Part shown: positions 26,220-28,802 of the stretch, piece by piece | Position numbering within the stretch: the first letter of the stretch is position 1 | Layout of the letters: each line of letters starts with the position of its first letter | Assembly: GCA_963720495.1 (NCBI GenBank) | Contig: CAVRFU010000004.1 | Location: 295,900 to 359,899 of the forward strand | Length of the DNA: 64,000 nt | Reading direction: 5' to 3' | Source: an uncultured Chloroflexia bacterium | GTDB taxonomy: Bacteria; Chloroflexota; Limnocylindria; Limnocylindrales; CSP1-4 | Translations under genes and position numbers: made by a program | Notes under the pieces: model-generated | Databases searched by the model: none | What the model saw: only the letters and a program-made list of their open reading frames with translations | Told to the model about the DNA's origin: nothing

Positions 26220-28802
26220 TTGTCCCAGACATTCGAGACCCAGTTCGGTGGTCGAACGCTGACCATCGAGACCGGCAAGCTCGCACGCCTCGCCGGCGGC
26301 GCCGTCACCGTCCGCTACGGCGACACCCTGGTCCTCGGGACCGCCAACCGGTCGGACCCGCGGCCCGGCCTCGACTTCTTCCCGCTCACGGTCGAGTTCG
26401 AGGAGCGCATGTACGCCGCGGGCAAGATCCCGGGCGGCTTCATCAAGCGCGAGGCCCGCGCCTCCGAGGCGGCGACCCTTGCCGCCCGCCTGACCGACCG
26501 CCCGATCCGTCCGCTGTTCCCCGAGGGCTACAAGGACGACATCCAGCTGGTCATCACGGTCCTCTCGACCGACCAGGAGAACGAGCCGGACGTCCTCGGG
26601 ACGGTCGCGGCCTCGGCCGCGCTGACCATCAGCGAGATCCCGTTCGCCGGCCCGGTCGGCGCGGTGCGCATCGGCCGCATCAACGGCGAGTTCGTGGTCA
26701 ACCCGACCTACAGCCAGGTCGAGGAGTCCGAGCTCGACCTCGTCGTCTCCGGCACGCGCGACGCGATCATGATGGTCGAGGCGGGCGCCAAGCTCCTGCC
26801 CGAGGCCGTCATGGCCGAGGCGATCCTGTTCGGCCACCGCGCCCTGCAGCCCCTCATCGACATCCAGGAGGAGCTCCAGAAGGCGGTCGGCAAGAAGAAG
26901 TCGACCCCGTTCCTCGAGGCCGGCACGGACTCGGTCCTCGAGTTCGCCAAGCTGGCCGACGCCGGTGACGAGTTCGTCATCGTCGACGTCGAGACGACCG
27001 GCACCGATCCCAAGATGGCCGATCTCGTCGAGATCGCCGCGGTCAAGGTCAAGGGCGGGAAGATCACCGACCGCTGGTCGACCCTGGTCAACCCCGGGCG
27101 GCCGATCGTCGGCCACCAGATGCACGGCATCACCGACGCCGACGTCAAGAAGGCCCCGAAGCCGGCCGACGCCGCGAAGGACGCCCTCGCGTTCATCGGC
27201 GACGCCAAGATCGTCGGGCACTCGGTCGGGTTCGACCTCGGCTTCCTCGAGGCCGCCCTCGCCGACGGCACCCACATCGAGGCCGGCCGCTACCTCGACA
27301 CGCTGACGATCGCCCGCGAGGGCTATCCGGATCTCGAGAACTACAAGCTGCCGACGCTGTCCAACTTCTTCGGCATCGAGCTCGCCCAGGCCCACCGGGC
27401 GCTGCCCGACGCCGAGGCGACGGCCAACCTGCTGATCTGGTTCGGCAACGACCTGCCGGCGCGGATCGCCGCCCTCAAGACGGGCATCGCCGACTCGTTC
27501 CGGGCGACCCGGACCGGCGGCGACAGCAAGGCCGTCCAGGAGGCCGCCCGCCGCGAGGCGCGCGTCAGCAAGGCGCTGTTCAACCTGATCCTCAAGAAGA
27601 CCGCCCGCCAGCTCGCCCTCGACGAGGGCATCCGGATGGACGGCCGCGGCGTCACCGAGCTCCGCCAGATCTCGGTCGAGGTCGGGGTCCTGCCCCGCGC
27701 CCACGGCTCGGGCCTGTTCACCCGCGGTGAGACCCAGGTCATGACGATCGCGACGCTCGGGTCGTCCTCGGACGTCCAGCGCATCGACACGATCAGCCCC
27801 AAGACCGAGAAGCGCTACATCCACCACTACAACTTCCCCCCGTACAGCACGGGTGAGAACAAGCCGATGCGTGGCCCCAGCCGCCGCGACATCGGGCACG
27901 GCAACCTGGCCGAGCGCGCGCTCATCCCGGTCCTGCCGAGCCACGAGGAGTTCCCCTACGTCATCCGGCTCGTGTCGGAGTGCATGTCGTCCAACGGCTC
28001 CACGTCGATGGCCTCGACCTGCGGTTCGACCCTCGCCCTGATGGACGCCGGCGTGCCGATCTCGGCCCCGGTGGCCGGCGCGGCGATGGGCCTGATCAGC
28101 GAGCCGGACGGCCGGTTCGTGGTCCTGACCGACATCCTCGGCAAGGAGGACTCGGTCGGCGACATGGACTTCAAGGTGACCGGCACGCGGGACGGCATCA
28201 CCGCCCTGCAGATGGACATCAAGGTCCAGGGCATCAACGAGGCGATCATCCGTGACGGTCTCAAGCAGGCCCTGGCGGCCCGCCTCGAGATCCTCGACAA
28301 GATGACCGAGGTCATGCCCGAGGCCCGCGTCGAGATGAGCGACTTCGCGCCGCGCATCACGACCATCAAGATCAACCCCGAGAAGATCCGCGAGATCATC
28401 GGCAAGGGCGGATCGATGATCCGCAAGATCCAGGAAGAGACCTCGACCGAGATCAACGTCGAGGACGACGGCACGGTCGAGATCGCGGCGGTGTCCGGTG
28501 AGAACGCCCGCAAGGCGATCGACTGGATCAACAGCCTGACCCGCGAGGTCGAGGTGGGCTCGCTCTACATGGGCAAGGTCACCCGGATCATGGGCTTCGG
28601 CGCCTTCGTCGAGATCCTGCCCGGCAAGGAAGGGCTCGTTCGCATCGGCGAGCTGGCCGACTACCACGTCCCGACCGTCGAGGATGTCGTCGCCGTCGGC
28701 GACGAGATCATGGTGGTCGTCCTCGAGGTCGACCGCCAGGGTCGGATCAACCTCTCCCGCAAGGCCGCGATGCAGCGCCATCTGGCCAAGGATCCGGTCT
28801 GA
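26220..28802 (+). CDS. pnp: Polynucleotide phosphorylase with an inserted DnaQ-like DEDDh 3'-5' exonuclease domain (860 aa)
   Basis: TTG 26220 lies 8 nt after AAGGAGGA and gives MSQTFETQFGGRTLTIETGKLA. RNase PH-1, RNase PH-2 (IRMDGRG...HGSGLFTRGETQ), KH (GKGGSMIRKI) and S1 (GKVTRIMGFGAFVEI) domains are all present. An in-frame ~170-aa DEDDh domain sits at 26967-27480, between the two RNase PH domains and splitting the helical domain. Confidence 0.9.
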   Translation: MSQTFETQFGGRTLTIETGKLARLAGGAVTVRYGDTLVLGTANRSDPRPGLDFFPLTVEFEERMYAAGKIPGGFIKREARASEAATLAARLTDRPIRPLFPEGYKDDIQLVITVLSTDQENEPDVLGTVAASAALTISEIPFAGPVGAVRIGRINGEFVVNPTYSQVEESELDLVVSGTRDAIMMVEAGAKLLPEAVMAEAILFGHRALQPLIDIQEELQKAVGKKKSTPFLEAGTDSVLEFAKLADAGDEFVIVDVETTGTDPKMADLVEIAAVKVKGGKITDRWSTLVNPGRPIVGHQMHGITDADVKKAPKPADAAKDALAFIGDAKIVGHSVGFDLGFLEAALADGTHIEAGRYLDTLTIAREGYPDLENYKLPTLSNFFGIELAQAHRALPDAEATANLLIWFGNDLPARIAALKTGIADSFRATRTGGDSKAVQEAARREARVSKALFNLILKKTARQLALDEGIRMDGRGVTELRQISVEVGVLPRAHGSGLFTRGETQVMTIATLGSSSDVQRIDTISPKTEKRYIHHYNFPPYSTGENKPMRGPSRRDIGHGNLAERALIPVLPSHEEFPYVIRLVSECMSSNGSTSMASTCGSTLALMDAGVPISAPVAGAAMGLISEPDGRFVVLTDILGKEDSVGDMDFKVTGTRDGITALQMDIKVQGINEAIIRDGLKQALAARLEILDKMTEVMPEARVEMSDFAPRITTIKINPEKIREIIGKGGSMIRKIQEETSTEINVEDDGTVEIAAVSGENARKAIDWINSLTREVEVGSLYMGKVTRIMGFGAFVEILPGKEGLVRIGELADYHVPTVEDVVAVGDEIMVVVLEVDRQGRINLSRKAAMQRHLAKDPV

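Follow-up and report, generated by a model that had tools for sequence, protein, structure and literature searches.

A polynucleotide phosphorylase of Limnocylindria with a DnaQ-like DEDDh exonuclease domain inserted between its two RNase PH-like halves

Polynucleotide phosphorylase (PNPase) is among the most studied enzymes of RNA decay, with a canonical length of ~700-740 residues, and from bacteria to human mitochondria its arrangement of domains is, to our knowledge, considered practically constant. The canonical bacterial enzymes of E. coli (3cdi/3gcm), S. aureus (5yjj) and S. antibioticus (1e3h) consist of a first RNase PH-like half (PH1), a helical linker, a second RNase PH-like half (PH2) and the KH and S1 domains, and rpsO-pnp is a canonical gene pair. 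Here, a stretch of 64,000 nucleotides of contig CAVRFU010000004.1, from an uncultured bacterium of the order Limnocylindrales (Chloroflexota), was analysed; the full length of this stretch is hereafter referred to as the window. Its pnp gene (26220..28802, + strand, 860 codons plus stop) shares with the canonical forms the domain order, the motifs and the rpsO-pnp context; on the contrary, the encoded protein, of 860 residues, carries in its helical linker a 158-residue DnaQ-like DEDDh 3'-5' exonuclease domain, which canonical PNPases lack. In the literature searched, in full text for PNPase and separately for Limnocylindria, no description of a PNPase with an inserted DEDDh domain was found, in agreement with the original prediction, made from the DNA letters, in which it was not recognized as a described form of the enzyme.

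Both component domains are well known, and the fusion of DEDDh domains to other nucleic-acid enzymes has precedents in PolC, DinG and Cas2-DEDDh. In PolC-type DNA polymerase III the DEDDh exonuclease is inserted within the PHP domain, but the host is a template-dependent DNA polymerase instead of a phosphorolytic RNase, and the window protein has no polymerase domains. DinG from B. subtilis and S. aureus (8zef/9ii8) carries its DEDD domain at the N-terminus of a helicase directed towards DNA and R-loops, in contrast to the internal insertion in an RNase found here, while in the Cas2-DEDDh 'trimmer-integrase' the domain is fused terminally to a subunit of the CRISPR integrase and the substrates are DNA prespacers. 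In the eukaryotic nuclear exosome, Rrp6 is a DEDDy nuclease present as a separate subunit on the S1/KH cap side, and the Exo9 ring is catalytically inert; on the contrary, the window PNPase conserves its ring motifs, and its nuclease is of the DEDDh type, covalently inserted and, by homology, on the opposite face. Caulobacter PNPase with RNase D, and mitochondrial PNPase/SUV3 followed by REXO2, likewise couple a phosphorolytic PNPase with a DEDD hydrolase (PMC4245959, PMC7261184). Nonetheless, in both cases the nuclease is a polypeptide of its own and belongs to another DEDD subfamily (RNase D being DEDDy, and REXO2/Orn a dimeric dinucleotidase), whereas the window PNPase is a single chain with a PolC/epsilon-like domain of the monomer type.

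Pfam recognizes in the window PNPase two RNase_PH and two RNase_PH_C domains, KH_1 and S1, together with PF00929 (RNase_T) between the PH halves, at residues 253-405, where the model is covered in full (positions 1-164 of 164) with an E-value of 5.8e-29 and 102-105 bits against a cut-off of 24. Among the NCBIfam profiles, TIGR03591 reaches 941.1 bits for a cut-off of 525, its match being split over two stretches, and NF008805 reaches 939.3 bits for one of 471. The protein is therefore a PNPase at the equivalog level, with the tandem RNase PH, KH and S1 domains in the expected order, and it is collinear with the solved PNPases 5yjj and 8zaw. When aligned with S. aureus PNPase (5yjj), its residues 3-225 correspond to 18-240 and its residues 451-851 to 310-709, so that 225 residues of the query stand in for ~69 residues of the helical linker. 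Pfam, NCBIfam and this alignment thus agree with the earlier claim of a collinear PNPase that bears a complete, in-frame DEDDh domain between its RNase PH halves, inside the helical linker, and the interval then given for it, 26967-27480, is accurate and corresponds to residues 250-420.

Along the + strand, PH1 comprises residues 1-225 (26220..26894), as delimited by the 5yjj alignment and by the Pfam RNase_PH and RNase_PH_C matches. It is followed by an N-side linker at residues 226-250 (26895..26969), with a helix at 237-248 and a column identity of 0.59, and by the DEDDh domain proper at residues 251-408 (26970..27443). A C-side helical region rich in conserved Arg and Lys, residues 409-450 (27444..27569), leads into PH2, residues 451-700 (27570..28319). 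The latter contains the phosphorolytic motifs RRDIGHG, SNGSTSM and GDMDFK at residues 555-561, 591-597 and 647-652, which align with the same phosphate- and metal-binding motifs of solved PNPases and are invariant in an alignment of 71 sequences extending to the 70%-identity clade. The RNA-binding KH and S1 domains complete the chain at residues 701-860 (28320..28799; KH_1 at 714-771 and S1 at 777-848). Unlike in canonical PNPase, the Pfam model of the helical domain (PF03726) is recognizable over its last third only, and weakly so, with model positions 48-80 of 81 matching residues 445-476 at E-values of 0.018-0.14, below the cut-off. PF03726 also stayed below threshold in constructs from which the insert had been deleted, and a native helical domain that is intact but split was consequently not retained as a demonstrated feature.

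The motif strings of the exonuclease are located at residues 252-275 (26973-27044), 329-343 (27204-27248), 359-370 and 391-405 (27390-27434). Exo I is formed by D256-x-E258 (26985..26993), Exo II by D339 (27234..27236) within the motif H-S/N-x-x-F-D, and Exo III by H392-x4-D397 (27393..27410), the 'h' signature of DEDDh enzymes. In a set of 121 sequences, made up of the window protein and 120 homologues, D256, E258, H392 and D397 are invariant (121/121) and D339 is present in 120, all five residues being invariant in the 71-sequence set. T260, G261, F338, R393, A394 and A398, around the motifs, are likewise invariant across lineages of 70% identity, and the five catalytic positions align with the motifs of PolC (2p1j and 9qpc) and DinG (8zef). 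They are also kept in 15 of 16 species-representative genomes, and the original prediction, in which the catalytic residues were intact, is thereby supported. In the remaining genome (L016, match 6001-6875), a long-read metagenome-assembled genome, the pnp frame breaks inside the exonuclease domain and the open frame stops at 6522; the match length, 875 nucleotides, is not a multiple of 3, and the break is probably an indel error, the alternative being a pseudogenized insert.

Regarding the affiliation of the insert, the full-length PF00929 match places it in the DEDD exonuclease superfamily, and the predicted structure has the corresponding RNase H-like alpha/beta fold. TIGR00573 is reached with 79-83 bits against a cut-off of 71.5. 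On the contrary, the equivalog profiles of the DNA polymerase III epsilon subunit are not (TIGR01406, 76-81 bits against 222.7; NF004316, 71-75 against 196), and these scores, far below the cut-offs, led us to reject orthology of the insert with epsilon; 'DNA polymerase III epsilon subunit family exonuclease', the name given by JGI, refers to the domain family only. The nearest profiles are PRK07883 (DEDD/Cho-like), DinG and PolC, and the nearest structures those of PolC, DinG and DnaQ. The best non-PNPase homologues, at 45-50% identity, are FAN1-like proteins with VRR-NUC and DEDDh domains, DinG helicases, BRCT-DnaQ proteins and PolC. RNase T gave no sequence match to the insert at E ≤ 1e-5, and other DEDDh branches are closer to the insert than that of RNase T and oligoribonuclease (Orn). 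The insert is consequently PolC/DinG/epsilon-like by sequence and fold and not RNase T-like, and from the 'DnaQ/RNase T' assignment proposed earlier the DEDDh superfamily stands and the likeness to RNase T falls. Among these homologues, three bacterial proteins of 726-736 residues (P0184, P0215 and P0255), with 45-49% identity to the insert, combine a FAN1-type HTH, a VRR-NUC and a C-terminal DEDDh domain.

Ratios of nonsynonymous to synonymous substitution rates (dN/dS), calculated by the Nei-Gojobori method on close pairs, amount to 0.11-0.25 for the exonuclease insert and to 0.04-0.18 for the PH, KH and S1 parts in the same pairs; the insert is under purifying selection. The 25-residue N-side linker is the fastest-evolving part of the protein (0.25-1.16). 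Since the DEDDh residues and the PNPase motifs are invariant and the insert is under purifying selection, both catalytic centres, the DEDDh and the phosphorolytic one, look active as judged from the sequences. GC content at third codon positions (GC3) is 0.975 in the insert and 0.965 in the rest of the gene, the codon-usage distance lies inside the null distribution, and no compositional step is seen along pnp. An intein, a mobile element or a recent transfer as the origin of the insert was discarded, considering that Pfam and NCBIfam find no such domain, that its composition is host-like and that its closest stand-alone relative has at most 50% identity.

That the gene is an artefact, either an assembly chimera or the product of a mis-joined dnaQ-like gene, is barely conceivable, and nothing was found in support of it; nor would chance account for the observation. 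The same architecture occurs in all of the 240 closest 90%-identity clusters listed (NCBI, ENA, JGI and Logan) and in at least 16 GTDB species, on host contigs of up to 2.8 Mb; the identical window protein is itself present on 4 contigs, the longest of 453,846 bp. The continuous frame, the matching GC3 and codon usage and the dN/dS values, well under 1, point in the same direction, and the absence of a chimeric join, argued in the original prediction, is upheld by the clusters, the species genomes and the host-like composition.

All of the 120 closest clusters listed for the window protein (84-92% identity) combine PF00929 with PNPase domains. A second search, seeded with an 864-residue homologue (P0124) that shares with the window protein 70% identity overall and 56% in the insert region, listed another 120 clusters, all with the insert and some named Candidatus Limnocylindrus sp.; in general, homologues are nearly all of 859-866 residues. 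Among GTDB species representatives, at least 16 genomes contain the complete junction-spanning segment at 60-89% identity, and the next matches cover the exonuclease domain only, at 46% identity or less. With a junction-spanning query, an exhaustive HMMER search of 1.84 billion cluster representatives retrieved no more than 68 proteins at E ≤ 1e-30; those that are genuine fusions form two groups, that of the window and that of Limnocylindrus. Informative names all belong to Chloroflexota, class Candidatus Limnocylindria, order Limnocylindrales, and every copy of the fusion comes from the rpsO-pnp context. The fusion is old, since both soil and freshwater lineages (Ca. Limnocylindrus) carry it in a fully ameliorated form, yet it is confined to one phylogenetic group.

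Several apparent exceptions were inspected. Six distant fusion variants from the 50%-identity library (P0171, P0185, P0197, P0192, P0153 and P0132; 36-53% identity) were rejected as frameshifted gene calls, in which good matches alternate with Arg/Pro-rich out-of-frame text, and seven multi-stretch matches of 500-1600 residues (P0150, P0177, P0155, P0175, P0176, P0180 and P0169) turned out to be tandem-DEDDh Cho-like, DinG, BRCT and PolC proteins without PH domains. Long tblastn coverage pointed to possible independent fusions in other groups, Coriobacteriia among them, but the two loci concerned (L067 and L026) are a DinG-type helicase and PolC, and these candidates were likewise discarded. 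A search for a deeper fusion clade from the most divergent genuine fragment (P0130) found none, returning only pieces of this same gene split by indels, from long-read contigs, and then unrelated zf-C4_Topoisom plus DEDDh proteins at 37% identity.

A few short contigs of 2-16 kb with a Limnocylindria-like fusion belong to metagenome-assembled genomes that are assigned to unrelated phyla, under the labels Verrucomicrobiia, Polarisedimenticolia, Patescibacteria or Deferrimicrobiaceae. Two of them, L009 ('Verrucomicrobiia', 2.2 kb) and L015 ('Polarisedimenticolia', 16 kb), are 83% and 64% identical to the segment of the window, and two partial fusions, P0436 ('Deferrimicrobiaceae') and P0437 ('Patescibacteria group'), were recovered together with P0130; these odd labels are probably binning errors. 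In addition, many 'distinct' public clusters, including the P0130 neighbours P0409-P0449, derive from this single high-GC gene through frameshift-split or out-of-frame calls, many of them on contigs of at least 100 kb, by which apparent diversity is inflated and names such as 'exonuclease domain-containing protein, partial' arise.

The AlphaFold2 model of the module has a predicted local distance difference test score (pLDDT) of 92. In the models, helices at 237-248, before the domain, and at 394-432, 436-447 and 451-469, reaching into PH2, frame the exonuclease, and the Exo III helix continues unbroken as the 39-residue helix 394-432 (pLDDT >90). Because the Exo III helix is predicted to run straight into the linker helix, the models suggest a DEDDh domain that is rigidly mounted and not tethered. 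The flanking helices contain R415, R428, R431, R444, R445, R448, K451, K459, K460 and R463, all invariant or near-invariant; among the C-side basic residues, R415, R445 and K451 belong to the former kind and R428, R431, R444 and R448 to the latter. When Foldseek was run with the full-length model, only PNPases were retrieved, with a template modelling (TM) score of 0.47.

[quoted passage not shown] From homology to the solved enzymes, we infer that the three DEDDh domains of the trimer would occupy the distal face, next to the phosphorolytic sites and to the side pore leading to them, at the '3'-end side' of the enzyme and opposite to the S1/KH RNA entrance. The domain had been expected close to the entrance of the central channel; this is not supported by the position of the helical domain, on the face opposite to the S1/KH entrance and beside the side pore (PMC2723993).

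The reading favoured here, which we consider to have about an even chance of being right, is that of a housekeeping PNPase with a catalytically competent PolC/DinG/epsilon-type DEDDh 3'-5' exonuclease, which would make it an enzyme of dual-chemistry 3' RNA turnover. The insertion would be ancient and would have taken place in the first half of the helical linker that joins the PH halves; the PH core would carry out the processive, phosphate-dependent degradation of RNA, and the DEDDh module would hydrolyse, independently of phosphate, those 3' ends that the PH core handles poorly. Candidate substrates would be the short oligonucleotides left by PNPase, short or blocked 3' tails beside structure, or 3' ends under phosphate-limited conditions. 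The fusion would then be a covalent form of the partnerships between a PH ring and a DEDD nuclease seen elsewhere, as in the relay from mitochondrial PNPase/SUV3 to REXO2, itself a DEDDh enzyme (PMC7261184), in the Caulobacter degradosome, which pairs PNPase with RNase D (PMC4245959), or in the exosome with Rrp6. The context of the gene is a housekeeping one, with a strong ribosome-binding site, rpsO upstream and the nusA-infB cluster. Several observations weigh against this proposal: (i) the closest characterized relatives of the insert are DNA-directed, PolC and epsilon being proofreaders, and B. subtilis DinG favours single-stranded DNA (ssDNA) and cuts free single-stranded RNA only with Mn2+ (PMC12525004), so that RNA specificity is not implied by ancestry; (ii) the same cluster contains an NrnA-like DHH/DHHA1 gene, and a separate nanoRNase may therefore already exist; (iii) the side pore was held by the original authors as unlikely to conduct RNA (PMC2723993); and (iv) the full-length AlphaFold2 model, built on a shallow alignment, is too poor (pLDDT 65.8) for judging the geometry between the two sites.

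The main rival reading is a role on DNA or R-loops, in which the module would serve recombinational repair or the resolution of replication-transcription conflicts instead of bulk RNA decay. By profile, sequence and fold the nearest relatives of the insert are exonucleases of DNA metabolism, including the FAN1-like, DinG, BRCT-DnaQ and PolC homologues at 45-50% identity; the DinG DEDD domain favours ssDNA and RNA:DNA hybrids and clears R-loops (PMC12525004), and PNPase has activities of its own on the 3' ends of ssDNA, together with RecN/RecA, and on the RNA of R-loops (PMC2709576, PMC3241651, PMC5379764, PMC13251995). Nonetheless, the host is a housekeeping pnp found in a single context, beside rpsO, its KH and S1 RNA-binding domains are intact, and no repair genes flank it in the locus; this role is considered possible, and less likely than the favoured one. 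As for the insert being mainly a structural or regulatory module, which would bind nucleic acid, gate the side pore for NDP and Pi or recruit partners without nuclease chemistry as the selected function, the proposal that the helical domain governs NDP/Pi access to the active site (PMC2723993), the apparently rigid mounting in the models and the conserved basic residues of the flanking helices are all in its favour. It is nevertheless quite improbable, considering that the insert is under purifying selection and that its five catalytic and neighbouring motif residues do not vary between lineages that share 70% identity overall and 56% in the insert region, a pattern for which an explanation other than catalysis is hard to find.

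Returning to the dual-chemistry enzyme, its DEDDh and phosphorolytic sites might share one RNA 3' end, in the manner of the polymerase and exonuclease sites of a proofreading polymerase, an arrangement that we regard as unlikely. Where phosphorolysis, or the reverse tail-adding reaction, stalls at a 3' terminus that is blocked, damaged, modified or structured, this end would move by way of the side pore of the helical domain to the rigidly mounted PolC-like exonuclease, be clipped hydrolytically and then return. If so, this would be the first 'self-editing' or obstacle-clearing PNPase, and Limnocylindria would represent a natural experiment in which an exosome-like ring and a DEDD nuclease have merged in one chain.

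Whichever the substrate, the one housekeeping pnp locus seen in an entire class of bacteria abundant in soil and freshwater encodes a second and chemically different 3'-5' nuclease, built in, by homology, next to the side pore of the active site, a finding that rests on sequence and modelling and would surprise PNPase specialists. As a 'Rosetta-stone'-like fusion, it argues that the coupling of a PH-ring phosphorylase with a DEDD hydrolase is important enough to be hard-wired (compare exosome-Rrp6, degradosome-RNase D and PNPase-REXO2). The window PNPase would provide a tractable single polypeptide in which to study how 3' ends are partitioned between phosphorolysis and hydrolysis, and would be useful for asking what the role of the poorly understood helical domain and pore is, and whether an added DNA-type exonuclease serves the DNA-repair and R-loop roles of PNPase. 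Fusion sequences have been publicly available from OGO51608.1 ('hypothetical protein', Chloroflexi bacterium RBG_16_70_13) onwards at the latest, and as a practical use their inconsistent annotations, ranging from 'polyribonucleotide nucleotidyltransferase' to 'DNA polymerase III epsilon subunit family exonuclease', 'exonuclease domain-containing protein, partial' and 'hypothetical protein', could be corrected.

Regarding the gene itself, the frame is open over 26139..28802 (+) and the coding start is placed at TTG 26220, as supported by the Shine-Dalgarno sequence AAGGAGG (26203..26209, +), read from the sequence 10 nucleotides 5' of it. Directly 5' of pnp lies rpsO, an 89-residue open reading frame (25829..26098, +; GC3 0.88) recognized by eye as ribosomal protein S15. 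The rpsO-pnp spacer contains a perfect 9-bp hairpin with a 6-nucleotide loop (26113..26136, +; GGACCCCGG / CCGGGGTCC), also read from the sequence, which is GC-rich, lies 15 nucleotides 3' of the rpsO stop and is not followed by a T-run. This candidate may be a leader or processing structure, and is reminiscent of the leader hairpin that is processed in the rpsO-pnp operon of E. coli. In the interval 25600-29100, Rfam gave just one snoRNA match, at chance level (22 bits against 40, E-value 0.07).

The surrounding chromosomal stretch comprises rpsB, dxr, rseP, ispG, nusA, infB, a DHH/DHHA1 gene, ribF, rpsO, pnp, an ABC transporter, the RNase J gene, ftsK and a gene for a cinA-domain protein. 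RNase J is firmly assigned (TIGR00649, 609 bits against 400). On the contrary, the DHH/DHHA1 protein (22086-23162, +), called NrnA in the original prediction, reaches only 91.7 bits, where the NrnA equivalog profile has its cut-off at 350; that identity is not sustained, and the protein is better described from its sequence as NrnA-like, its equivalog membership being unproven. The presence of these two genes had also suggested an unusual RNA-decay machinery; both occupy an ordinary nusA-infB-...-rpsO-pnp-...-rnj-ftsK arrangement, and the window holds nothing unusual in this regard beyond pnp itself.

Some neighbouring frames show features of their own. A 670-residue frame at 22870-24882 (+) has a family match (FAD_syn, i.e., ribF) at residues 437-584 only; its N-terminal part, at the position expected for truB, is without a family match, for which overlapping high-GC frames may account. 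Between nusA and infB, ylxR/rnpM usually stands as a small gene by itself; at 17929-19716 (+), one frame of 595 residues contains both NusA (TIGR01953, residues 27-362, 388 bits) and RnpM/YlxR (NF047356, residues 497-574, 89 bits against 80), and may be a NusA-RnpM fusion. In the ABC transporter 3' of pnp, which is of the oligopeptide type, a 620-residue permease (30735-32597, +), located 3' of an SBP_bac_5 binding protein, contains two BPD_transp_1 stretches and BPD_transp_1_N and appears to be a fused double permease. Finally, a protein of 627 residues (38643-40526, +), whose gene adjoins ftsK, shows an unusual combination of HTH_25 (RodZ-like), a Glucodextran_B-like region and a C-terminal CinA domain (PF02464).

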